DNA of 64,000 bases from an uncultured Candidatus Saccharibacteria bacterium. GTDB lineage: Bacteria > Patescibacteriota > Minisyncoccia > Phycocordibacterales > UBA2100. Shown here one piece after another: positions 41,839-63,252 of the stretch; position 1 is the stretch's first letter; every line of letters begins with the position of its first letter. The position numbers and the translations under genes are program-made. The stretch spans positions 129,037-193,036 of the forward strand of contig CAYYEX010000001.1 in NCBI GenBank assembly GCA_964471165.1. The letters are read 5' to 3'. The notes below the pieces were generated by a model. It worked only from the letters and a program-made list of their open reading frames with translations. It was not told the origin of the DNA and searched no databases.

Positions 41839-41890
41839 CCCCGAGATTCTCCGGGGTCACGCCCGGCAAGGCATTCTTGCCTCGACAATA
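41839..41890 (+). repeat. dispersed REP/MITE-like element, short form (copy a)
   Basis: ccccgagattctccggggtcacgcccggcaaggcatt...gcctcg; aligns with copies at 47167 and 56347. Confidence 0.6.
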
Positions 41891-47149: not shown

Positions 47150-47166
47150 AAGAGCGCCAGTATATC

Positions 47167-47210
47167 CCCGAGTTACACCGGGGTCACGCCCGGCAAGGCA
47201 TTGCCGAGGC
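47167..47210 (+). repeat. dispersed REP/MITE-like element, short form (copy b)
   Basis: ccccgagttacaccggggtcacgcccggcaaggcattgccgaggc. Confidence 0.6.
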
Positions 47211-47247
47211 AAGACAAAGCCGCGCCTGCGGTTTGTTTTGTTGGCCG

Positions 47248-47772
47248 ATGCAAGATAGCATCAGCCGTGTGAAAGCGTTTTCCGGCAGAATATTCAAAAT
47301 CGGCATCAATCCATGCCTCGTTCCCCCAGAGTCCGTCATGGAGGCGCTGTTTCAAGACGCGGGTAAACGCTCGGGAGCTATCCCCGTGTGCGGCACCCTC
47401 GAGGGCGCGCCCTACGTGCAAACACTCGTAAAGTTCTCTGGTAAATGGCGCTTCTATATCAACGGTCCCATGCTGAAAGCTTCGGGACTCCAAAACGGAG
47501 ATATGGCGCACGTTGCAATCGAATACGATGCTCGCTCGCGCACGGTGCCTCTTGGTGTGCAGCTCAAGGAAGCCTTGGCAAAAGACAAAGCCGCAAAAAA
47601 AGCATACGACGCACTTGCCCCACACCGCCAAAAAGAAATCAACCGCTATTTAACCGGTCTCAAGACCGAAGCGACATTGCAGCGAAACATTGTGGTCGTA
47701 GTCGACTCGCTTGCGGGCCGCGGCACCACCGGGCTCCATGCGCTCCTGCGCGTTGCGCGCACCGACGACTAG
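47248..47772 (+). CDS. DUF1905/YdeI-like protein
   Basis: start at MQDSISRVKAF; N-terminal DUF1905-like beta region (IFKIGINPCLVPP) and C-terminal YdeI-like helical region. Confidence 0.55.
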   Translation: MQDSISRVKAFSGRIFKIGINPCLVPPESVMEALFQDAGKRSGAIPVCGTLEGAPYVQTLVKFSGKWRFYINGPMLKASGLQNGDMAHVAIEYDARSRTVPLGVQLKEALAKDKAAKKAYDALAPHRQKEINRYLTGLKTEATLQRNIVVVVDSLAGRGTTGLHALLRVARTDD

Positions 47773-47861
47773 TCTGTCCACAGACGCGGCCATTTTTCGC
47801 AACAATATATCGTTTAGGATAAGAAACGGTCCGACGGACCATCCATCAATAACAAAAAGGA

Positions 47862-48086
47862 GTGTATTCCGTAATGTTATCGGCAATAAAAAAGCCTACG
47901 CCTTCCCTCTCGTTTCTCTTCTACCAAACCCTCATCGACTTCTCGTCATCACGATGGCTCCCTGTGTCGTTGCGTATTCATTGGGGAGTGTCGTTCACGC
48001 TCTCGTTCTTTGCGGGGGTGGCACTCATTCTCTGGGTGCTTTTGGGACTGAAGAAGAAACTGCAGGAAAGAAAGGCGTCCGTCTGA
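47862..48086 (+). CDS. small membrane protein
   Basis: 74 aa; AAGGAG RBS 9 nt upstream; 2 TM; followed by terminator. Confidence 0.45.
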   Translation: MYSVMLSAIKKPTPSLSFLFYQTLIDFSSSRWLPVSLRIHWGVSFTLSFFAGVALILWVLLGLKKKLQERKASV

Positions 48087-48100
48087 GCTCTTGATTACTC

Positions 48101-48145
48101 GGTCGCCCCTCGCCATTCACTTGAGGGGCGACCGTTTTGCTTTTG
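48101..48145. terminator. bidirectional intrinsic terminator
   Basis: GGTCGCCCCTC-11 nt-GAGGGGCGACC plus T-run. Confidence 0.65.
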
Positions 48146-48149
48146 AACA

Positions 48150-48569
48150 TTATCGTCGTCCCATAAAGTAGCCGAGAAACGCTGTAATTGAGACAATTAT
48201 GATCACAGCCAGGTAGGATTTTAAATCAGTGAGCGCCTCCAACCAATCCGGAGTCATAAGAAATAGTGAATATATGAATCCGAGCAGTGCACCTGACGCG
48301 AGCCCCGAAGGATGTTCTGGTCGCGAGGCACGCGCAAAGTAAAAAGAAGTGAGTCCGTACCAGATACACAGTATTCCGAGGAATAACCACGTGGAAAAGA
48401 AAACTCCAACATCGACACTGATACTCATTCGGACGACATCAGAAGAAAGTGCATAGGAGATACCAGAGAAAAGCATGATGACTTTCAATAAAAGCCATGT
48501 GCTCGCAAAAAGCAGTGCTCCCGCGATGAGCCCGCGTTTGTATTCAAACCCTTTGAGGGTCTCAATCAT
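48150..48569 (-). CDS. hypothetical membrane protein (4 TM)
   Basis: 139-aa hydrophobic ORF. Confidence 0.4.
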   Translation of the reverse strand: MIETLKGFEYKRGLIAGALLFASTWLLLKVIMLFSGISYALSSDVVRMSISVDVGVFFSTWLFLGILCIWYGLTSFYFARASRPEHPSGLASGALLGFIYSLFLMTPDWLEALTDLKSYLAVIIIVSITAFLGYFMGRR

Positions 48570-48651
48570 ATGTAGTGATTATGACATGGGCCGATTTGCA
48601 TTTGAGGCTTGCAACTGTAATATCTCGTGAGTCGACTTCGGAGAACGCTCC

Positions 48652-49068
48652 ATGTATGAAGCCATGTATCTTGCCTTGTTGTTCGTCGCGGCCTGCGGCG
48701 CCGGCATGTTCGTACAAGCAGTGGTCGAAGAAGGCCATTTTCGATCTGCGATCGTGATCTACGCGATACTACTCATATTCCTTGCCTCTCAGATCTCGCC
48801 GCTCGTCGTCGAGATATTCGAATGGTTGGGGATTATGCAGTCATTCAGTTCGCCCGTGCGCAGGTTCTTCGGCAGTATCCTCGCAAGCGTACCGATCTTG
48901 CTGATCGTTGTAGGTGCAATGATCCTATCTGCCACGCCGACGGATCTCATCGACCCACGTTCACGTGCAGAGATTGCGCGAGCGCGACGGAAGGACTTAC
49001 TCGCGCAGAAGCCTCGCCGAGGCACCTATCGAAGACGGAATCACTTCGTCGAACATACCAATCGGTAG
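48652..49068 (+). CDS. hypothetical membrane protein (3-4 TM) with basic C-terminus
   Basis: 138-aa ORF, terminator downstream. Confidence 0.4.
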   Translation: MYEAMYLALLFVAACGAGMFVQAVVEEGHFRSAIVIYAILLIFLASQISPLVVEIFEWLGIMQSFSSPVRRFFGSILASVPILLIVVGAMILSATPTDLIDPRSRAEIARARRKDLLAQKPRRGTYRRRNHFVEHTNR

Positions 49069-49092
49069 CGCCATACAACATAGTGAACATCT

Positions 49093-49124
49093 CGGCTGGA
49101 CTTGCTCCAGCCGTTTGTTTTTTA
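49093..49124 (+). terminator. intrinsic terminator
   Basis: CGGCTGGA-CTTGC-TCCAGCCG plus T-run. Confidence 0.7.
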
Positions 49125-49241
49125 CATGGAGGGATGTGCTTACCTCGTAATTTGACAAGCGTTCCAAAGACACGCATTGTCTTGGCAGCATCCAAATCAG
49201 GCATGCTCTATCGATAACCCCGACCTGAAAGGAGCTCACCT

Positions 49242-49853
49242 ATGGGCGAGCAACCGAGCGACGAAGACCGCGTGCGTGCGTTGTTGCAGCACGAGATGAA
49301 GATGTCTGCTCCCAACGAGATGCAGCTTTCCGAAGCAATCGCCGACCTTATCATTGGCAACCCGGCAAGTGCGCACGACTTGTTGCTGTTGATTGAAAGC
49401 TACATCGATCGCAGTTTCACCGTCTATACATGGCGGTTCATGCCCGCGGTTCTGATTGGCTTACTCAGCGCTGCAATCTGGTGCGAAAAGAACTCGAAAA
49501 CGTATAACTGCGAGTTCGCCGCCGCACTGCCCGTGACACTCGGGACACTTCTGCGTCGCTACATCGATCGTGCTCCAAACCAGCCCGACAAGACGCACGA
49601 CCTATGCGGCGAGGGGGCCATCGGCAGGTTCAGCGACTTGCTCACGCTGTATACCTCGACCGGCAACCCGGATGAGAACACGCGGCGCATCGCGTTCATG
49701 CTCGGACGTGCAGCGAAATACGGGTCGCATGTTCCCGATTGCACTGCGCCGATTGTCAGTGTAGTGGCGCAGCGCGCACTCACCTTCCTGTGCGCCGGTG
49801 CGCAGATTCGCGCGGTTAACGCTCAGCTCAACGCAGAGCGCATCATTCCGTGA
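49242..49853 (+). CDS. hypothetical soluble protein (first gene of cassette-like array)
   Basis: 203 aa; TTGACA-like box and AAGGAG RBS upstream. Confidence 0.45.
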   Translation: MGEQPSDEDRVRALLQHEMKMSAPNEMQLSEAIADLIIGNPASAHDLLLLIESYIDRSFTVYTWRFMPAVLIGLLSAAIWCEKNSKTYNCEFAAALPVTLGTLLRRYIDRAPNQPDKTHDLCGEGAIGRFSDLLTLYTSTGNPDENTRRIAFMLGRAAKYGSHVPDCTAPIVSVVAQRALTFLCAGAQIRAVNAQLNAERIIP

Positions 49854-49864
49854 GCGAAACAGGC

Positions 49865-50014
49865 ATGCTGCTCGATACAGCCCAGCTATACTTCGCCGGA
49901 TTCGGCAACGCCGAGACAGAAGTGATCTTTAAATCCGCAGCCATTACGGCGATAATCTGCGCGATTCTCAGTGCGGCAGCCGTCCTCTACATTTTCAGGA
50001 AGAGGAAAAAGTAG
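49865..50014 (+). CDS. small TM peptide (49 aa)
   Basis: below the ORF-track cutoff; 11 nt after upstream stop; hydrophobic helix plus KRKK tail; followed by array terminator hairpin. Confidence 0.3.
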   Translation: MLLDTAQLYFAGFGNAETEVIFKSAAITAIICAILSAAAVLYIFRKRKK

Positions 50015-50029
50015 TGCGCGACAGGCTAA

Positions 50030-50055
50030 GGCCGGCATCCAGCGAGGTGCCGGCC
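50030..50055 (+). repeat. array terminator-hairpin module GGCCGGCATCCAGCGAGGTGCCGGCC (copy 1)
   Basis: 8-bp GC stem, 10-nt loop, directly after a stop codon; identical copies at 52205 and 55269. Confidence 0.7.
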
Positions 50056-50170
50056 TGATTTGATGCCTCGGCCCCAAGAATATCTGGGGTCGCAGCCCGG
50101 GAAAGCATTCCCGAGGCGCGTCAATGCAAAGCAGGGCTGAATCCCGGCGACAGCTCGGGAAATTCTCACT
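50056..50170 (-). repeat. dispersed REP/MITE-like element, long form, inverted orientation (copy c)
   Basis: tgatttgatgcctcgg...cagggctgaatcccggcg; reverse complement aligns with copy f at 63178. Confidence 0.55.
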
Positions 50171-50176
50171 CTCCCC

Positions 50177-50192
50177 CTATTCGCGCGAATTA
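50177..50192. promoter_or_regulatory. perfect 16-bp palindrome CTATTCGCGCGAATAG (ATTCGCGCGAAT box 1), overlapping stop codon of 50177..50983
   Basis: seen directly; identical 24-nt context ctattcgcgcgaattagagaatag recurs at 55909. Confidence 0.5.
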
Positions 50193-50983
50193 GAGAATAG
50201 CTTGCGCAGCGCAGGCTCATGCATGACCGCGTGACTGTGACCAAAAATTATAAAAATATTGTCGTGAGTGTGTAGCTCCCGAGCAATATCCTCTACCGCA
50301 AAACAATCACGTATATGCGAAGTAACGCGCCCGACTCTATTCAATGCGGTTTCAGTAATATCTGCGCGTGGGATTGGGTCGACGTATTCGCTCACCATTT
50401 CATCGCTCTCCACGTCAACAGGGTGTCCCACAATCGCTTCTCCAATACGCAGTGCATTCTCATATGAATAGTCGTATCCCCGCCACTCGGTGCTGCGTTT
50501 AAATCTATCGAGAAATGGCTGCGCGTATTCACGAAAGCTATCACCGTTCCCTCGGCGATAGTACTGCGGTAGTACGCGAAAAAGCTCGTATGCAAATATC
50601 TCGTCTGGGGTATACCCTTTTGCAATCAGTTGTTCGTGAACAAACTCGTCACTCGGCTCCGGTGAATTGCACTCGATACCTTTTTCGAGTGCAAGCCGCA
50701 CGGCGAATAATGGTTCGCCTCCTTGCTCTATTGTTTCGCTCTCCGACATTTCGCTCAGCCACACGTGGAACGACTCACGCCGCTCGCGCAACTTTTCTAC
50801 TCCCTCGACGAGCACGAGGTCCGGAGCTGCCTTTTCAAGCGTGCTGCGTATCTGTGCAAACAGAGTATTGTTTGGGTCGCTTACGTGGTCAGAGCCAAAA
50901 TACGTGATTTTCTTTCCGTTGCGTGTGAGTTCAAAAATGTATGGCGATTCATGTCGGATACCGCTGTATTCCTGTGCGTTCAT
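50177..50983 (-). CDS. hypothetical protein (weak TraB/GumN-like N-terminal pattern)
   Basis: start at ATG 50983 (MNAQEYSG); ITYFGSDHV resembles the GxxH box of TraB/GumN family, not reliable. Confidence 0.4.
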   Translation of the reverse strand: MNAQEYSGIRHESPYIFELTRNGKKITYFGSDHVSDPNNTLFAQIRSTLEKAAPDLVLVEGVEKLRERRESFHVWLSEMSESETIEQGGEPLFAVRLALEKGIECNSPEPSDEFVHEQLIAKGYTPDEIFAYELFRVLPQYYRRGNGDSFREYAQPFLDRFKRSTEWRGYDYSYENALRIGEAIVGHPVDVESDEMVSEYVDPIPRADITETALNRVGRVTSHIRDCFAVEDIARELHTHDNIFIIFGHSHAVMHEPALRKLFSNSRE

Positions 50984-51090
50984 AACGTTGTCACCGAGCT
51001 GGGGCGCTTTATGCTCGGGCTGACGCAATACTCTTTTGTCTGGCGAGTCTATTCCCACAACAGGATTATAGCCCCCAGATTTGTTTGTGC

Positions 51091-51123
51091 TGGCATATCC
51101 AGATTTTCAGGCGTAGCATATGG
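51091..51123 (+). promoter_or_regulatory. array promoter-like box (P-box copy 1)
   Basis: tggcatatccagattttcaggcgtagcat; same box upstream of four other array genes. Confidence 0.5.
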
Positions 51124-51150
51124 TTTGGAATTCTCAGTGGAGCGAAAGAA

Positions 51151-51354
51151 ATGGCACAGCCACGCACATTCAACGTCTTCTCACGCAACGTGTGGATTAT
51201 CGCCGGCGGCGGCGTCGGAGGCGGAGTAATTGGTTGGGCGCTTTCCTCATACTACGGAGTGCCAAACATCGACCACGGGCCGTTCACGGCTCTGGGCATG
51301 ATCATTGCGAGTGTCCTTACGGCACTTTTGGTGTTCCGACGCAAGCGCTCCTGA
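51151..51354 (+). CDS. small 2-TM membrane protein (67 aa)
   Basis: GGAG RBS; Gly-rich helix AGGGVGGGVIGWAL; terminator downstream. Confidence 0.45.
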   Translation: MAQPRTFNVFSRNVWIIAGGGVGGGVIGWALSSYYGVPNIDHGPFTALGMIIASVLTALLVFRRKRS

Positions 51355-51357
51355 CGA

Positions 51358-51377
51358 ACGAGCAAGCTCGTTTTCCT
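51358..51377 (+). terminator. intrinsic terminator
   Basis: AACGAGC-AA-GCTCGTT plus TTTT. Confidence 0.55.
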
Positions 51378-51448
51378 ACGGCCGGAATCGCGAGATTCCG
51401 GCACCTTCGTTTTATACATCTGGGTCTTGTTTCGCTCCCGCGTGTATT

Positions 51449-51478
51449 TCAACTCCAGCAATTAATCCAATTGGATTA
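51449..51478 (+). repeat. partial copy of ~100-nt array repeat (R100) containing ATCCAATTGGAT
   Basis: tcaactccagcaattaatccaattggatta vs tcaactccagtaatccatccaattggatga in full copies. Confidence 0.5.
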
Positions 51479-51692
51479 TTTATAGGAGTGACTCCTTGGA
51501 TGCGGATTTCGATTCTCTCGCCAACTCGTACGTATCTCTAAAAGGTTAAACCTTGGAGCACTTTATTGACCCACGCGTATCCGTGACGCAGTATTCACAA
51601 GTTCGGGCTGGATGCTTGAACGAGTGTATCTACCTAGCTACGCGGGATGCGTAGCGGATACTGTGCGGCGGGATGCCGCAAGGAGGTACGTA

Positions 51693-52181
51693 ATGAAAGC
51701 CAAAGCCAAGGCCCAAGGATTTCGGGCTGCATTCCCTTGGATTGATCAACTCTTTCCCGGGGAGAACTACAACTTCGCGACCGCGTCGGTTGATGCCGAC
51801 ATTCTCGATCGTGTGCCCAGCTTCAACTATCCTGAGCTCACGAAGAACCGCATCACCCTGGTCAGTCGGCACGGAACGCTGATGACCGACGTTGCGGGCG
51901 TGAGTGGAATTGTCTCTGCACTCACGATCAACTTCGGTGGCTTCTGCCGGCAGAAGGAGGAGTTGGTCAGCGAAGCACTCGAACGGCTCGGCGATGCGGT
52001 GTCGGACGTTGGATTCATCGTGGTAATCACCCCGCGGGGTCGCCACAAACAGACGAACTTCACCATCTACCACACGCGCGAGAACACCTCTATCGCAGAG
52101 GTTTGGCGGCGCTTGGCGGCAAAAGAAGAGGCGGACGTCCGCAAACAAATACAAGCGGAGATGGAGCCACTTGCGGCCTAA
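51693..52181 (+). CDS. hypothetical protein
   Basis: start at ATG with AAGGAGG RBS (MKAKAKAQGF); followed by array terminator hairpin. Confidence 0.5.
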   Translation: MKAKAKAQGFRAAFPWIDQLFPGENYNFATASVDADILDRVPSFNYPELTKNRITLVSRHGTLMTDVAGVSGIVSALTINFGGFCRQKEELVSEALERLGDAVSDVGFIVVITPRGRHKQTNFTIYHTRENTSIAEVWRRLAAKEEADVRKQIQAEMEPLAA

Positions 52182-52204
52182 CACGGCCCCACATGTTCAT
52201 TCGA

Positions 52205-52230
52205 GGCCGGCATCCAGCGAGGTGCCGGCC
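52205..52230 (+). repeat. array terminator-hairpin module (copy 2)
   Basis: GGCCGGCATCCAGCGAGGTGCCGGCC then GATTCGTTTTG. Confidence 0.7.
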
Positions 52231-52330
52231 GATTCGTTTTGGACGTATCACTCTCTGATATATATCAACTCCAGTAATCCATCCAATTGGATGAACCACA
52301 GCAGTAGGCTATCTCGAGGATAGTTAATTT
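52231..52330 (+). repeat. ~100-nt array repeat R100 (copy A) with 12-bp palindrome ATCCAATTGGAT
   Basis: about 90% identical over ~100 nt to 55295..55392. Confidence 0.65.
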
Positions 52331-52400
52331 TTGATATCAGAGAAGAGGGCGACGATGCGATCTTTGAGAATGCCGCGAACTATTTCGGGCTTGAATTTAT
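52322..52400 (-). pseudogene. 3'-terminal fragment (about 20 codons plus stop) of a second CDA-fold deaminase paralog
   Basis: 52328-52400 about 90% identical to 53291-53370 (3' end of the full deaminase gene); encodes ...FKPEIVRGILKDRIVALFSDIKN* vs ...FNPEIVRGILKDRIVALFADIKK*; similarity ends abruptly upstream. Confidence 0.55.
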
Positions 52401-52462
52401 ATTCAAAGGCCCGACCTTAGAATATATGTAGAGTTGCAAATTAGGACACGTTTCTGTAGTGT

Positions 52463-53233
52463 ATGCAACAGCTGAATGGAAATGTGGAAGGACTCACCGT
52501 GTCCCAGCAACAATACGACTCTTTCGCAAGCAACTATGCAAAAGCCGCCGCCGGCAACGGCGTGAACGATTACTGCAACTACCCGAGCCTGTATGCCGCA
52601 GCTGGAGATTTCGTGGGCAAGAAAGTGCTCGATCTCGCCACAGGGAACGGCAAAGTTGCTCGCGCAGTCGTTGAACTGGGCGCTGCAGAAGTGATCGCGG
52701 TTGACGAGTCGCAGAAGATGATCGATATCGCACGGGCGCAAACTCCGTCGAGCTCGCCGATACGGTACTACACGGAAACCGTGGGCAAACTTGGACACAT
52801 GGACAAGTTCGACGTCGTCATCGCCGGCTGGCTCCTGCACTACGCGAAAAGCGAAGTGTCGCTGCGCGCAATGTGCCACGACATCATGCTCAATTTGAAA
52901 CCGGGCGGCGTTTTCGCGGCAATTAATCCGAATCCGATGAACCCGTTCGGAGGCACTCGTACGCTCGGCACCATGGTGAGCCCACGGCGAGTCCCCTGCG
53001 ACAACGGCGGCGAGATGATCATTACCCTCTACGGCGAGACCACGCAAACGTTCTCGGCGTATCACTGGGAGATGGAAACCTACAAGAAAGCGTTCCGTCT
53101 CAGCGGTCTCGATCTGGAGGTAATTCAGCCGCAGCCAACGGCGCTCGGACTCCAGCGGCTCGGTCCGCTGTTCTGGGACGAAGCGCGCCGGCATCGCATC
53201 ACCTCGATCTTTCGTGCCCGCCGCAGATCGTAA
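52463..53233 (+). CDS. class I SAM-dependent methyltransferase
   Basis: 256 aa; motif I VLDLATGNG, acidic motif II AVDES, motif III-like DVVIAGW. Confidence 0.8.
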   Translation: MQQLNGNVEGLTVSQQQYDSFASNYAKAAAGNGVNDYCNYPSLYAAAGDFVGKKVLDLATGNGKVARAVVELGAAEVIAVDESQKMIDIARAQTPSSSPIRYYTETVGKLGHMDKFDVVIAGWLLHYAKSEVSLRAMCHDIMLNLKPGGVFAAINPNPMNPFGGTRTLGTMVSPRRVPCDNGGEMIITLYGETTQTFSAYHWEMETYKKAFRLSGLDLEVIQPQPTALGLQRLGPLFWDEARRHRITSIFRARRRS

Positions 53234-53258
53234 TGCTGCGCCGAAGGTAATAGCAAGA

Positions 53259-53292
53259 AGGCCGGAGTTCCTCCATGGAACCCGGCTTTTAC
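53259..53292. terminator. bidirectional terminator between convergent methyltransferase and deaminase
   Basis: GCCGGAGTTCC-TCCA-TGGAACCCGGC plus TTTT. Confidence 0.6.
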
Positions 53293-53738
53293 TTTTTGAT
53301 ATCAGCAAAGAGAGCGACGATGCGGTCTTTGAGAATGCCGCGAACAATCTCGGGATTGAATCCGGAATCCTCTGCGAGGTGTTCGATTCGAAATTGTCTT
53401 TCGCGGAGCAAGTCCGGTAAATCACTGCGTGATGCACCGATTACCACTCGCGGAATCTTTGCTTGGAAAATTGCTGCCGCGCACATGAGGCACGGTTCGT
53501 TGGAGCAGTAGATTACACAGTCACTCAGATTATTTGTGCCGAGCACTTTGCAGGCATCGTTTACCGAATGGAGCTCCGCATGAGCAAGCACCGTCTTTTC
53601 TTTTGACTCGCGGCAACGATTTTGCGCAATCACCTCATCCCCGCGAACTATCACAGCCCCAAACGGCCACTCGCCGTCAGCCTTGGCCTCCACGGCCTGC
53701 GCGATGGCCATTTCCATGTATTTTTCGTCCATATCCAT
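53289..53738 (-). CDS. CMP/dCMP-type (CDA-fold) zinc deaminase, TadA/guanine-deaminase-like
   Basis: 149 aa; zinc motifs HAELH and SNEPCLMCAAAI. Confidence 0.8.
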   Translation of the reverse strand: MDMDEKYMEMAIAQAVEAKADGEWPFGAVIVRGDEVIAQNRCRESKEKTVLAHAELHSVNDACKVLGTNNLSDCVIYCSNEPCLMCAAAIFQAKIPRVVIGASRSDLPDLLRERQFRIEHLAEDSGFNPEIVRGILKDRIVALFADIKK

Positions 53739-53763
53739 ATGAGTATTCTAACTCACATCCCCC

Positions 53764-53792
53764 TAGCGAATCTCAATTTTCGGGCGTAGGAT
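53764..53792 (+). promoter_or_regulatory. array promoter-like box (P-box copy 2)
   Basis: tagcgaatctcaattttcgggcgtaggat. Confidence 0.5.
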
Positions 53793-53846
53793 TTGTGCGG
53801 GACCGTGCCCGCCCCGGACACACAACAACTCAGATGGAGCTTGCCC

Positions 53847-54053
53847 ATGAGAACCGGTTTCGCAGTGCTTCTCACTGCTGCGCTCTCGATTGCCCTCGCA
53901 CTCGCTCTTCAGCAGACGATTCTGTTTGCCGAGGCAGAGCTCGGAAAACAATGGGCAATGCCCGCGATGCTGGTTGTCGGCATCCCGGCGAGCTACCCGA
54001 TTCACCTGTTCCTCGAATGGGCGTCGCGATTCTCAGCTCCGCGGCTTGCATGA
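53847..54053 (+). CDS. small 2-TM membrane protein (68 aa)
   Basis: internal ATG with GGAG RBS (MRTGFAVLLTAAL). Confidence 0.45.
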   Translation: MRTGFAVLLTAALSIALALALQQTILFAEAELGKQWAMPAMLVVGIPASYPIHLFLEWASRFSAPRLA

Positions 54054-54084
54054 GCTAGGCCAGAAATGGCATCAGATTTTTCCC

Positions 54085-54110
54085 GGCCGGCATCCAGCGA
54101 GATGCCGGCC
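54085..54110 (+). repeat. array terminator-hairpin module (copy 3, GGCCGGCATCCAGCGAGATGCCGGCC)
   Basis: one loop substitution relative to copies 1, 2 and 4. Confidence 0.7.
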
Positions 54111-54203
54111 TTATTGCATACCCTAGCCTTTCGAAACAATACGGAGTAACCTTTTTGCAGGGAATGTTTGGAAGTCACACGTCCACAGCGGGAGCGAACC
54201 AAC

Positions 54204-54548
54204 ATGGAAGCAGCCTTATCACGCGAAGCAATGATCGGTGAGATCGCCGGATTCTATGGAACCAAATTGGGGCCAGCTGTAGCTCAACGGCTCGCAGATT
54301 TGCCCGACGATCGGGTTTCCAATGCGCACGCACTGATGCAGCGACGTCGCAAGGCGCATGACATGATTGCCGCGTGCATGGCGGCCTACGCCCTGTTCGC
54401 CGACGTGCTCGAAGAGCACTACATGGGACAGAGCATTGCGATTAGCGCGATGACTGGCGAATTCCGCATAGGCTACACCGACGCAGAACTCGCCGCGTGG
54501 AAACTGCCCGAGGGCGACGGCGTGTTCATGATCAAAATCGGACAATAG
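54204..54548 (+). CDS. hypothetical protein (114 aa)
   Basis: internal ATG with GGGAG RBS (MEAALSREAMIGE); degenerate P-box-like sequence upstream (54121..54150). Confidence 0.45.
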   Translation: MEAALSREAMIGEIAGFYGTKLGPAVAQRLADLPDDRVSNAHALMQRRRKAHDMIAACMAAYALFADVLEEHYMGQSIAISAMTGEFRIGYTDAELAAWKLPEGDGVFMIKIGQ

Positions 54549-54573
54549 CCAATTTCGGCGGGAGTACTCACCA

Positions 54574-54750
54574 ATGCCCCACGATGTTATTCGACCCGAC
54601 TGGTCGTATTGGCAATGGCCACCGACCAAAGCGGATTGGGACAAGCTGCGCAGACAAGAGGCCGAGTACCAGGCTCGGCGCGCCGTCGACCCGCTCAAGG
54701 GCGGTCCAATCGAGCAGTTCCTTGCATGGCTCCTCTGTGTGCCATAGCTG
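54574..54750 (+). CDS. small Trp-rich protein (58 aa), possibly coupled to upstream gene
   Basis: below ORF-track cutoff; GGGAG RBS; 25 nt after upstream stop; followed by variant terminator hairpin. Confidence 0.3.
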
Positions 54751-54761
54751 ACCGACATTCA

Positions 54762-54787
54762 GGCCGGGTCCCCCGTTGGACCCGGCC
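54762..54787 (+). repeat. variant array terminator hairpin GGCCGGGTCCCCCGTTGGACCCGGCC
   Basis: 10-bp GC stem; followed by same gatttgatgcctcggc flank as copy 1. Confidence 0.6.
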
Positions 54788-54826
54788 GATTTGATGCCTC
54801 GGCTATGCCTAGCCGGGCTGAATCCC
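54788..54826 (-). repeat. dispersed REP/MITE-like element, short form, inverted orientation (copy d)
   Basis: gatttgatgcctcggctatgcctagccgggctgaatccc; reverse complement of copy e core. Confidence 0.55.
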
Positions 54827-54851
54827 TTTAGTGACGTTTACCCACTATTCG

Positions 54852-54869
54852 CCCATTCGCGCGAATGGG
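54852..54869. promoter_or_regulatory. perfect 18-bp palindrome CCCATTCGCGCGAATGGG (ATTCGCGCGAAT box 2)
   Basis: seen directly; identical copy at 55984. Confidence 0.5.
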
Positions 54870-54877
54870 TCCAATAG

Positions 54878-54906
54878 TGGCGAATCTCTATTTTCAGGCG
54901 TAGGAT
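54878..54906 (+). promoter_or_regulatory. array promoter-like box (P-box copy 3)
   Basis: tggcgaatctctattttcaggcgtaggat. Confidence 0.5.
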
Positions 54907-54930
54907 GGCCGCGGCTTAGGGAGGAACACG

Positions 54931-55242
54931 ATGAATATCAAAGCTGTCTTACTCGCATCGCAGAAGACATTGATCGCAGTTGAACGCCACTACCCCGGTA
55001 TCGAACCGCGCCAGTGGCCGAAGGGACGCCCTGCAAACCTCGAGTGTGACCGTGACCTGTTGGTCGCCGACGCGGTTTGGACGCTGCACAGGATTCCCGC
55101 CATGATCGATGCGAAAGATTCTGACAAGGCTATGCATTCGCTCGGCACCTGTCAGGCAGTTTTGTGGCTCATGAGTGTCATCGAACAATCGGAGCTTGAG
55201 TCGATCAATCGCACGGCCGTCGCGGAATCCGCGGCAGCGTAA
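54931..55242 (+). CDS. hypothetical soluble protein (103 aa)
   Basis: GGGAGG RBS; followed by array terminator hairpin. Confidence 0.45.
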   Translation: MNIKAVLLASQKTLIAVERHYPGIEPRQWPKGRPANLECDRDLLVADAVWTLHRIPAMIDAKDSDKAMHSLGTCQAVLWLMSVIEQSELESINRTAVAESAAA

Positions 55243-55268
55243 CGGAGACCTCTATGTTCACTGATCGA

Positions 55269-55294
55269 GGCCGGCATCCAGCGAGGTGCCGGCC
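55269..55294 (+). repeat. array terminator-hairpin module (copy 4)
   Basis: GGCCGGCATCCAGCGAGGTGCCGGCC then GATTCGTTTTG. Confidence 0.7.
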
Positions 55295-55392
55295 GATTCG
55301 TTTTGTATTTTGTGTCTATCATTCTCTGATATATCAACTCCAGTAATCCATCCAATTGGATGAGTTACAGCAGTGAACTATCTGGAGAATAT
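55295..55392 (+). repeat. ~100-nt array repeat R100 (copy B) with ATCCAATTGGAT
   Basis: aligns with 52231..52330. Confidence 0.65.
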
Positions 55393-55419
55393 TTTTAATT
55401 CCTCGGCTTTTTTGTTCAC

Positions 55420-55448
55420 TAGCGAATACTTGTTTTCGAGCGTAGGAT
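55420..55448 (+). promoter_or_regulatory. array promoter-like box (P-box copy 4)
   Basis: tagcgaatacttgttttcgagcgtaggat. Confidence 0.5.
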
Positions 55449-55487
55449 TTGTGCGGGAATGAACGGCAACAACGGAAGGATTCCGCC

Positions 55488-55871
55488 ATGAACGTCGAGA
55501 CGATGATTATGTTTGTGTGCTTCGCTGCGATAGCGCTCGGTATCACGGTGGGCGGATATCGCACGGCAACGGTTACCCGCGCGCGAATCGATGCCATCAA
55601 AGCCAACGCGGTAATCACTGCGCTGATGGCGGCGCTCATGTGGTGGTACTGGAGCCCCGAAATCAACGAGCTCGCGTTCGGCTTCCGCAACAACTTCCTC
55701 GGCTACACGAGCGCCTTCGTGCTGTGCATGCTGACCATTCCGTTGCCCGTTTTCTTTATCGCGGCAGCAATTGCTCGTTTCAGCGCGTGGGCCGAGTCTG
55801 ACCAAGCCAAGGCAAATCGAAAAGCTGGGCAGCGGCGGTTCTTCGCGGAGCCCTCCCCAATTCCGCGTTAA
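55488..55871 (+). CDS. polytopic small membrane protein (127 aa, 3-4 TM)
   Basis: internal ATG with GGAAGGA RBS (MNVETMIMFV). Confidence 0.5.
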   Translation: MNVETMIMFVCFAAIALGITVGGYRTATVTRARIDAIKANAVITALMAALMWWYWSPEINELAFGFRNNFLGYTSAFVLCMLTIPLPVFFIAAAIARFSAWAESDQAKANRKAGQRRFFAEPSPIPR

Positions 55872-55908
55872 CCTCTGAGCGCGTCGCGCCATCACTCAGA
55901 CCCATTCG

Positions 55909-55924
55909 CCTATTCGCGCGAATT
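55909..55924. promoter_or_regulatory. perfect 16-bp palindrome CTATTCGCGCGAATAG (ATTCGCGCGAAT box 3)
   Basis: identical to 50177..50192 including aattagagaatag tail. Confidence 0.5.
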
Positions 55925-55937
55925 AGAGAATAGCCCC

Positions 55938-55963
55938 GGCCGGCATCCAGCGCGATGCCGGCC
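55938..55963 (+). repeat. array terminator-hairpin module (copy 5, GGCCGGCATCCAGCGCGATGCCGGCC)
   Basis: two loop substitutions. Confidence 0.65.
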
Positions 55964-55983
55964 TGATTTAATACTCACTATTC

Positions 55984-56001
55984 ACCCATTCGCGCGAATG
56001 G
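55984..56001. promoter_or_regulatory. perfect 18-bp palindrome CCCATTCGCGCGAATGGG (ATTCGCGCGAAT box 4)
   Basis: identical to 54852..54869 with shared actattc(g/a) left flank. Confidence 0.5.
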
Positions 56002-56346
56002 GTCCAGAGAGACTATTCGCCTATTCGCGTGCGACCAATGTTTCTTAGCGGTACTCCGCTTTAGAAACATGAAGTACTCTTGTGGTGAATTAGAGAATAG
56101 TTGAATACACACAAGGTGTGCGGTCGCACAGGTTGTGTGTATGTGTCACTTCAAGGTTCGACCTTGAAGTAGGTCTGGTGCGGGCCCCACACCGCCGCGC
56201 AAATCGTTCTTTCCGCGCAGGCCACCTGCAACCGTCCGGGCAATCGCCCGGACTTCTGCTTTATGTCCCCATTTTCTTTCTCTAACGAATGTCTTCCGCA
56301 CAAGGTCCGACCTTGTCATCGCTTGGACTGCGTCCTGATCTAATAC

Positions 56347-56397
56347 CTCCCGAGATACTCCGGGATTCAGCCCGGCTAGGCATAGCCGAGGCATCAC
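56347..56397 (+). repeat. dispersed REP/MITE-like element, short form (copy e)
   Basis: cctcccgagatactccgggattcagcccggctaggcatagccgaggcatca. Confidence 0.6.
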
Positions 56398-56426
56398 TAG
56401 CGAATCTACATTTTCGGGCGTAGCAT
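56398..56426 (+). promoter_or_regulatory. array promoter-like box (P-box copy 5)
   Basis: tagcgaatctacattttcgggcgtagcat, 8 nt before the ATG. Confidence 0.5.
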
Positions 56427-56434
56427 CAGGCTGT

Positions 56435-57421
56435 ATGTACGTGATAGTTGACACAAACATAATTCACAAGGATTACTATTTGTCATCAAAAAAATTCGTT
56501 GCACTATTTGAATACCTAAGAAAAACTCCCCACAAATTGATTATTCCTCAGATCGTTGAGAATGAACTAACGGAACATTTTAGACGTGATGTGGTTAGTT
56601 TACGTGAACTGCAAGGTTCGTTCATTCACGACACAGACAAGCTATTGAAGACAGCGATATCACGCAAAGATATCGATGAAGACGCCGAGTTAAAGAAATA
56701 TATAAAGTTTCTCGAAAAGTTCTACGAAAACAACCCAGTAGAACGAGCACTGCACAATTCGGATTTCTTTCTTGAAATTGTTGAGCGTGCAGTGCGTCGG
56801 CGTGCGCCGTTCGTCAAAGGCGAAAAACCTGACTATGGATTTAAAGATGCAGTACTTTGGCACCATGTTAGAGAAATTGCGCATAAAGGCCACGAGGCGT
56901 TGGCCTTTATTAGTGCCAACACATCTCAATTTGCAAATGCTTCTAAAGACGACTTAAATCCTGAACTCAGAGCAGAGTTGTCCCGCTCCAACACTACATT
57001 TAAATACTTCACAACACTTGAATCTTTTCTGGAGAAGTATGGAGCCCCATTACAAGGTATTACCCACGAGGCCGTTAAAAAAGCACTCGACTTGAAGGCC
57101 CTGGAAATGAAAGAAACAGGCGCATTCAAGGAGGAATTCCTCAAAGAGATATTTGAGTACGCGCTATACAAATCGGTGCAACAAATAGAGTTTGAGAGAC
57201 TCGAATTAAGCAATTTCTTCGTTTCAGCAATGGACAAGAAGTCATACTTCCTTGAAGCAGTGGGTAGCGCATTCGCATGGGTTCTTATATGGGATCCCAC
57301 AACCGAGCCGTACCCTGATGAACTCCGTACAACATTTAAAGCCACCTTGAGGTTTGATCGGAAAACATCCGAACTCGTTGCGGACTCAATATCGATCGAC
57401 AAGTACGATATCCCATTTTAG
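56435..57421 (+). CDS. PIN-like (DUF4935-type) domain protein, AT-rich relative to surroundings
   Basis: 328 aa; N-terminal MYVIVDTNII...(D-x-N PIN start) with extended helical C-terminal region; codon usage visibly A/T-rich. Confidence 0.55.
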   Translation: MYVIVDTNIIHKDYYLSSKKFVALFEYLRKTPHKLIIPQIVENELTEHFRRDVVSLRELQGSFIHDTDKLLKTAISRKDIDEDAELKKYIKFLEKFYENNPVERALHNSDFFLEIVERAVRRRAPFVKGEKPDYGFKDAVLWHHVREIAHKGHEALAFISANTSQFANASKDDLNPELRAELSRSNTTFKYFTTLESFLEKYGAPLQGITHEAVKKALDLKALEMKETGAFKEEFLKEIFEYALYKSVQQIEFERLELSNFFVSAMDKKSYFLEAVGSAFAWVLIWDPTTEPYPDELRTTFKATLRFDRKTSELVADSISIDKYDIPF

Positions 57422-57600
57422 ACAAGTGTTCTTGCCTACATCAAAAAAGTATTCTGAGTCTTTGCAAAACATGAGACTCTTCCGTCTTTTTTTGATAAAA
57501 TCAAGCAATATGACGATTGTTTCAAGGACATCGTTGACATCGATCTCGTCCGCAATGCTCGCCGTGCAAATTTTTGTCGCTTCTGCATTGACCGCGTGTT

Positions 57601-57642
57601 CATTAGCCTGTACGCTGGGACTTCCCAGCGTACAGGCTAATG
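57601..57642. repeat. perfect 19-20-bp inverted repeat CATTAGCCTGTACGCTGGGA...TCCCAGCGTACAGGCTAATG
   Basis: seen directly; 4-nt loop; immediately upstream of an intrinsic terminator. Confidence 0.7.
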
Positions 57643-57651
57643 AAGTGAGTA

Positions 57652-57686
57652 AATAACAAAACCGTGCTTCTTGCGCGGTTTTTTGG
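57652..57686 (+). terminator. intrinsic terminator after PIN-like gene
   Basis: AACCGTGC-TTCTT-GCGCGGTT plus TTTTTT. Confidence 0.65.
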
Positions 57687-57811
57687 ACTGAGATATTTGG
57701 ATGCAGTTCTAGGCGCGGGCGAGGCGGGTTCCGAGCCGTACTGAATGTACGGTGAGGAGCACGGCGACGCACGCAACAACGAAATGCGCCAAATAGTTCA
57801 GTCCATCATAT

Positions 57812-63177: not shown

Positions 63178-63252
63178 AATCCCTAAAGGGATTCAGCCCG
63201 GCTTGCATTGACGCGCCTCGGCGATGCTTCGCCGGGCTGCGATCCCTGTGGG
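63178..63252 (+). repeat. dispersed REP/MITE-like element, long form (copy f), internally inverted-repeated
   Basis: gggattcagcccggc...ttgcattgacgcgcctcgg...gccgggctgcgatccc; reverse complement of copy c shares ttgcattgacgcgcctcgg. Confidence 0.55.

Follow-up and report, generated by a model that had tools for sequence, protein, structure and literature searches.

Integrative elements insert into the 3' end of tRNA, tmRNA and protein genes and restore the end of the gene that they enter, and they are flanked by attL and attR as direct repeats. Displacement of gene 3' ends in rhs, CDI and T6SS effector loci has reportedly been described by Jackson et al. 2009, and is treated by Kirchberger et al. 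2017 (PMC5361080). Orphaned 3' ends in rhs loci and T6SS effector-immunity arrays are attributed to homology-facilitated illegitimate recombination (PMC5361080). This type of recombination is known from transformable bacteria (PMC5361080, citing de Vries and Wackernagel 2002; Prudhomme et al. 2002; Meier and Wackernagel 2003).

The 64-kb window analysed here, meaning the whole stretch of DNA at its full length, contains a short copy of a deaminase 3' end beside an intact deaminase gene. The locus consists of the following features.

52185..52325, + strand: repeat module of the 3' flank, a terminator hairpin (D1) followed by a long hairpin (D3), abutting the stop codon of the relic
52324..52396, - strand: deaminase 3'-end relic, 23 codons and a stop, start codon absent, upstream frame closed
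52385..52416, no strand assigned: hairpin across the inner breakpoint, TCGGGCTTGAAT-TTAT-ATTCAA(AG)GCCCGA, from RNA folds
52396..52423, + strand: promoter-like site TTTATA-16-TAGAAT, a consensus match only, just within the inserted unit
52463..53233, + strand: class I SAM-dependent methyltransferase (Pfam Methyltransf_25/11), sole gene between the two copies
53257..53290, no strand assigned: hairpin rich in G+C with a T run after it (RNA fold -24.8 kcal/mol; + strand z -3.2)
53289..53738, - strand: intact TadA-like (CDA-superfamily) deaminase, 149 aa (Pfam dCMP_cyt_deam_1 / MafB19-deam)

The relic and the final 73 nt of the intact deaminase gene (53289-53361) form an ungapped direct repeat with 65/73 identical positions (89%). 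The match has an E-value of 9.4e-21 by blastn against the whole window and is recovered by nhmmer at E 2.5e-21. The earlier note had placed a 3' deaminase fragment at 52328..52400. The fragment is real, with coordinates and counts slightly different from those given there, and the pairwise alignment is clearly better than chance. The repeat covers the terminal 23 codons of the deaminase and the stop codon, which reads TTA on the + strand. The relic translates as FKPEIVRGILKDRIVALFSDIKN and the same stretch of the intact gene as FNPEIVRGILKDRIVALFADIKK. An abrupt end of the similarity had likewise been claimed and is found on both sides, with the stop codon as one limit and a position inside the coding sequence, 52396|52397, as the other. 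A stop seven codons upstream closes the frame of the relic and a start codon is absent, hence the segment is no open reading frame. The relic lies 892 nt past the stop of the intact deaminase on the same strand, and the longest perfect run common to both copies is 20 nt. No further deaminase fragments were detected in the window by blastn (word 7), tblastn or nhmmer. The 73-nt segment is best explained as a relic without function, left from the 3' end of an earlier deaminase allele.

The differences between the relic and the intact gene follow a coding pattern. Third codon positions account for seven of the eight (binomial P=0.0026) and synonymous changes for five (P=0.018); indels are absent, and frame and stop codon are kept. 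A local duplicate under neutral decay would accumulate changes at all three codon positions alike. The observed bias toward third positions and synonymous changes and the lack of indels thus indicate that the relic diverged inside a working gene, as opposed to decaying where it now lies. Ile/Arg/Ile in RG-I-LKD-R-I-V is common to the relic and the resident gene, and the relatives L004, L005 and L011 carry other residues there. The relic thus descends from a close allele or from a paralog of very recent origin, not from a distant paralog. The distribution of changes between the two copies is asymmetric. When L004 serves as outgroup, the relic branch receives all 8 changes and the intact gene 0; once L043 and L044 are added, 5 changes are clearly derived in the relic and 3 are ambiguous. 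Over the whole gene, the window lineage carries 25 derived bases compared to 32 in the L004 lineage, which are similar rates. The asymmetry on the relic branch counts against the best explanation and is not fully explained by it.

The protein encoded by the intact gene is classed by its sequence as TadA-like. It contains the zinc motifs AHAE and EPCLMC, and its best solved relatives are TadA proteins (E 1e-21). The NCBIfam TadA score is 69.7 bits, against an equivalog cut-off of 150. The names that sources attach to its homologues point to Candidatus Kaiserbacteria and Paceibacterota (CPR bacteria). The gene order dnaG, rpoD, deaminase, DUF1905/OmdA gene and UvrD/PD-(D/E)XK helicase is present in every close relative with enough flanking sequence. 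The deaminase is a conserved syntenic core gene in Kaiserbacteria-like CPR relatives and no array cassette, as which it had been presented earlier; in all close relatives it sits in synteny beside rpoD. The gap between rpoD and the deaminase measures 15-960 nt in L004/L010, L005, L011, L052 and L059 versus 4.1 kb in the window. The distance from the deaminase to the DUF1905/OmdA gene is 0-1.3 kb in relatives versus 5.5 kb. Given these wider gaps, the lineage gained DNA on both sides of its resident deaminase.

The protein search with the deaminase retrieved nothing between 92% and 100% identity, no deaminase C-terminus nearer to the relic than that of the resident gene, and no intact allele with the ...LFSDIKN end of the relic. 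A codon-degenerate DNA pattern for VRGILKDRIV had no match in JGI metagenomes. Searches for exact copies of three proteins (deaminase, methyltransferase and left neighbour) retrieved solely the same strain and context. A non-syntenic deaminase homologue with 78% identity is found in L065 (4070-6532), flanked by two class I methyltransferases and adjoining aminotransferase and decarboxylase genes as well. These methyltransferases are only ~30% identical to that of the window over the SAM-binding region.

The 892 nt between the two repeat copies constitute one self-contained gene unit. Its methyltransferase gene is oriented convergently toward the deaminase. The true start is probably the GTG at 52499, behind GGAAGGA, because homologues align only from residue ~16. 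A word-indexed search of 5.8 billion proteins retrieved no relatives at E<=1e-10, and a search among 1.84 billion cluster representatives gave 44% identity for the closest match. The unit is missing from all relatives. Its GC3 of 0.71, compared to 0.55-0.65 for core genes, hints at a foreign origin, with which it is compatible without being decisive. The terminator hairpin at 53257-53290 is common to the convergent methyltransferase and deaminase genes and ends at the stop codon of the deaminase.

On its outer side, the relic borders the D1-D3 module (~140 nt), which has a second copy at 55250-55394. Recombination at module boundaries, as previously claimed, holds for this outer end of the relic only, and the inner breakpoint lies within coding sequence. 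The D1-type terminator-like hairpin GGCCGGCA-TCCAGCGAGG-TGCCGGCC occurs in five copies of 41 nt each, at 50026, 52201, 54081, 55265 and 55934, every one directly 3' of a + strand ORF. Seven JGI metagenome contigs (L036-L042) each contain one copy of its 26-nt hairpin, loop included, and are otherwise unrelated. These matches were dropped as evidence about the locus, since the seven contigs have just the 26-nt hairpin in common.

The surroundings are rich in orphan genes and repeats. The interval between the UvrD/PD-(D/E)XK helicase and rpoD (47200-57800) spans ~10.6 kb compared to 1-5 kb in relatives, and it encodes ~17 mostly orphan small ORFs and a PIN_12 protein. Variable-region ORFs on the + strand have a GC3 of 0.62-0.73 versus 0.55-0.65 in core genes. 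A promoter-like module, GCGAATC-N14-GGCGTAGGAT, occurs at 51090, 53763, 54877, 55419 and 56397 (40 nt each), 25-50 nt upstream of + strand ORFs. As the module is conserved in L044 (1-30 and 1950-1985), it may be the usual promoter type of the clade and not a cassette boundary. A palindromic element with ATTCGCGCGAAT, which looks like a candidate protein-binding site, is located at 50163, 54839, 55896 and 55972, frequently just 5' of the promoter-like module. The same element lies upstream of the deaminase in the relative L043 (519-558). A perfect 35-nt inverted repeat (54792-54826 and 56362-56396) surrounds 1.5 kb with two small ORFs, 54931..55242 and 55488..55871. The enclosed segment could be invertible, or the repeat could merely represent opposed copies of a dispersed repeat. 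A REP-like repeat, CCCCGAG..CGGGG..GCCCGGC..GGCAT, is dispersed, with copies at 41839-41875, 47166-47202 and 56348-56384, with further pairs at 50086-50129 and 63203-63246 and at 54811-54834 and 63180-63203. The REP-like copies are intergenic, occur in both orientations and reach 13 kb beyond the variable region. The helicase ORF was called from a TTG at 47212. Alignment with L004 suggests the ATG at 47150 as the true start, which would leave the 47166-47202 repeat intergenic.

A second relic is present in one relative. L044 is a 2-kb Logan contig whose deaminase falls in the same clade of at least 90% amino acid identity as that of the window. The two deaminases are 81.6% identical in DNA and 92% in protein.

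L044:1342-1395, direct orientation: deaminase 3' relic, nhmmer E 6e-8, 85% identical over 40 nt to the gene of the same contig

This relic sits 847 nt past the stop of its deaminase, and the interval contains one convergent orphan ORF of 225 aa. The ORF has no Pfam match, does not resemble the methyltransferase and is without homologues in the protein collection. Because the L044 relic encloses a different gene, the slot downstream of the deaminase has probably turned over at least twice in the clade. No relic was found in L004/L010, L005-7, L011-L025 or L045-L065, with L044 the sole exception among ~24 related lineages.

The two relics resemble each other in several respects. The L044 relic retains ~54 nt and the window relic 73 nt, and the inner breakpoints appear to differ when the sequences are compared. 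The best local alignment between the relics has 38/45 identical positions. Both contain a Ser codon (TCT) where all intact genes encode Ala. The L044 relic carries the ATT and GAT codons of the window type, unlike its own gene, and over 48 nt it differs at 11 positions from its own gene versus 9 from the copies in the window. A motif of 8-12 nt, TATATTCAA(A)GGC, may be common to the DNA just past both relics (shuffle P ~0.02). The relics differ at 13/54 sites, compared to 54% at four-fold degenerate sites of the two deaminase genes. The relics are therefore young or more recently related than their host genes. The two deaminase genes are 83% identical over the relic stretch, and the similarity of the relics is what would be expected if each inherited it from constrained parent genes. 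Changes in the L044 relic include the disruptive Leu to Pro and Val to Asp, and a 14-nt deletion is possible.

We suggest that the scar arose through displacement of the 3' (C-terminal) end of the deaminase by homology-facilitated illegitimate recombination, with a probability of about 0.55. The incoming DNA would have carried the deaminase 3' end of a related strain, the terminator and the convergent methyltransferase gene with its own promoter. The conserved deaminase gene would have served as homologous anchor, and the far end of the incoming DNA would have been joined illegitimately 73 nt ahead of the resident stop codon. Such an event would rebuild a full-length deaminase and add the methyltransferase. 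The old 3' end would be displaced downstream, where it would still lie against its old 3' flank. A cargo-type gene directly downstream of and convergent with the deaminase is common in relatives. Displacement would explain why the divergence is of the coding type, why the breakpoint is abrupt and internal, why the gene is intact and why the cargo is lineage-specific. It would also explain the recurrence in L044 with different cargo and an apparently different breakpoint.

The locus holds a partial 3' copy in direct orientation downstream of the gene, lineage-specific DNA between the copies and the trace of a once-functional parent allele. Directly observed are the repeat and the DNA that it encloses, the place of the deaminase among the core genes, the divergence of coding type and the relic of L044; we infer the donor, the direction of the event and its exact enzymology. 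Searches of proteins, JGI metagenomes and viral contigs retrieved no donor sequence, and the protein and JGI metagenome searches no pre-insertion strain. Only two genomes bear a relic. The common Ser codon and the possible junction motif could instead stem from a single old event followed by exchanges of cargo, or from a relic borne by a mobile element. The earlier note had seen evidence for the replacement or deletion of cassettes. The scar instead records the insertion of one gene unit beside the deaminase, not the loss of a deaminase cassette.

A recombination scar from a truncated second copy had also been claimed, and the scar itself stands. Whether the second copy was a resident tandem paralog is a different matter. 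Two long-functional tandem deaminases could have existed, of which the methyltransferase replaced the downstream copy except for its last 73 nt. The bias toward third positions and synonymous changes suits two functional copies equally well, and the relic lies downstream of the intact gene in direct orientation, as such an origin would have it. We nevertheless consider a tandem paralog rather unlikely. The intact second deaminase to be looked for in relatives is absent from ~24 related lineages over up to 10 kb on each side (many contigs being much shorter), which makes this origin less economical. Both relic-bearing lineages would need a tandem pair that was truncated independently, each time by a different gene. 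Nor would a second copy of a housekeeping-type gene be expected to last in a reduced CPR genome.

Site-specific integration offers a further, unlikely explanation. The deaminase 3' end would act as an attachment site for a recombinase encoded elsewhere, and the two copies would correspond to attL and attR. The methyltransferase unit and the 225-aa orphan of L044 would then be mobile mini-cassettes, each with a deaminase-like att segment. Two lineages with different single-gene cargo but equal architecture and cargo orientation speak for such a mechanism, as do the Ser codon of both relics, the L044 relic being no nearer to its own gene than to the window copies, the possibly common motif at the inner junction and the 20-nt identical core. 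Against it, the scanned ORFs of the window include no integrase, transposase or HUH protein, the copies are just 89% identical and the inner ends seem not to be the same in both lineages. Both cargo genes are found nowhere else, and the relic motif had no match in viral contigs. The hairpin across the inner breakpoint has the last 12 nt of the relic as its left arm and the first non-homologous DNA as its right arm, with the breakpoint in the loop. This coincidence is only suggestive, with a chance of ~2% at a random point, as hairpins of at least equal stability occur at 117 loci in 64 kb, or ~1 per 550 nt. The junction hairpin is not conserved in L044.

Two described classes of elements were considered and rejected. 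The Pfam scan covered ORFs of at least 200 aa chosen by the longest-non-overlapping rule and the array ORFs of the window, and gave no match to an integrase, transposase or reverse transcriptase. The attC core GTTRRRY is at no boundary (52320-52400 and 53255-53295 read by eye for RYYYAAC ... GTTRRRY). An integron was rejected given that IntI is absent from the scanned ORFs and attC core sites from the boundaries, and that the unit has its own promoter-like site and terminator. A diversity-generating retroelement was rejected because the differences are not adenine-specific (2/8 involve A in the non-coding copy) and a reverse transcriptase is absent from the scanned ORFs.

A broader and doubtful proposal is that Kaiserbacteria-like CPR bacteria have a dedicated slot for the exchange of single genes, bordered by the deaminase end and the relic. 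If true, orphan genes would enter and leave it, each together with its own promoter and terminator. The agent would be a trans-acting recombinase reading the deaminase-end sequence, or the relic itself might serve as a homology arm. Repeated use of the slot would then have built the surrounding 10-kb run of orphan genes.

It is highly improbable that the relic is a functional element under selection, for instance as a homology arm for slot exchange or as an upstream control region of the inserted gene. The relics do differ at fewer sites than the four-fold sites of the host genes, and the window relic has no indel. Young relics from constrained parents fully account for this similarity, however, and the L044 relic with its disruptive changes and possible deletion has no conserved structure. 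The source is a metagenome assembly, in which two strain variants could have been joined wrongly, yet we reject such an artefact as barely conceivable, because a contig from a different assembler (Logan ERR3094292, L002) has the identical sequence including both junctions and because a perfect run of 20 nt is far too short for a misjoin at k=141.

Displacement of the deaminase 3' end, if correct, makes the relic a datable footprint of orphan-gene gain in an uncultivated CPR bacterium with a reduced genome. Genes would be gained here by recombination anchored in a conserved core gene, without a recognisable mobile element. The position just 3' of the deaminase is a candidate recurrent entry point, given the equivalent footprint with a different gene in L044. 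The scar is small, fairly ordinary and mechanistically familiar. It is a fresh example from CPR bacteria, in which the mechanisms of gene gain are poorly documented.

The locus shares single traits with several known systems. Integron cassettes are similarly single-gene units in a variable region with recurring boundary sequences. The locus differs by having neither IntI among the scanned ORFs nor attC with R''/R' core sites at the boundaries. Unlike integron cassettes, the inserted unit also brings a promoter-like site and a terminator of its own, and it converges on the neighbouring gene. Integrative elements at gene 3' ends likewise leave an insert flanked by direct repeats of the target 3' end and an intact gene. 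The insert here measures only 0.9 kb, encodes the methyltransferase but no integrase, and lies between repeats that are 89% identical with an identical run of at most 20 nt. The likeness is greater to the displacement in rhs, CDI and T6SS loci, where incoming DNA is also anchored in the conserved part of a gene and brings a new 3' end and a neighbour gene, and where the old 3' end is shifted downstream as an orphan fragment. Repeated events build arrays in these loci, whereas one relic per genome is detectable here. The target is a housekeeping-type TadA-like deaminase instead of a polymorphic toxin, and the cargo is a convergent methyltransferase or orphan gene instead of an immunity gene. 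The new and old ends encode nearly equal peptides, unlike in rhs, CDI and T6SS displacement. Homology-facilitated illegitimate recombination concerns transformable hosts, while the present case is read from sequence and competence of this uncultivated CPR bacterium is only assumed. The process combines a homologous anchor on one side with an illegitimate join at the other end, as proposed for the deaminase locus. Foreign DNA is captured in this way, at times with part of the target left duplicated, as would be the case here.
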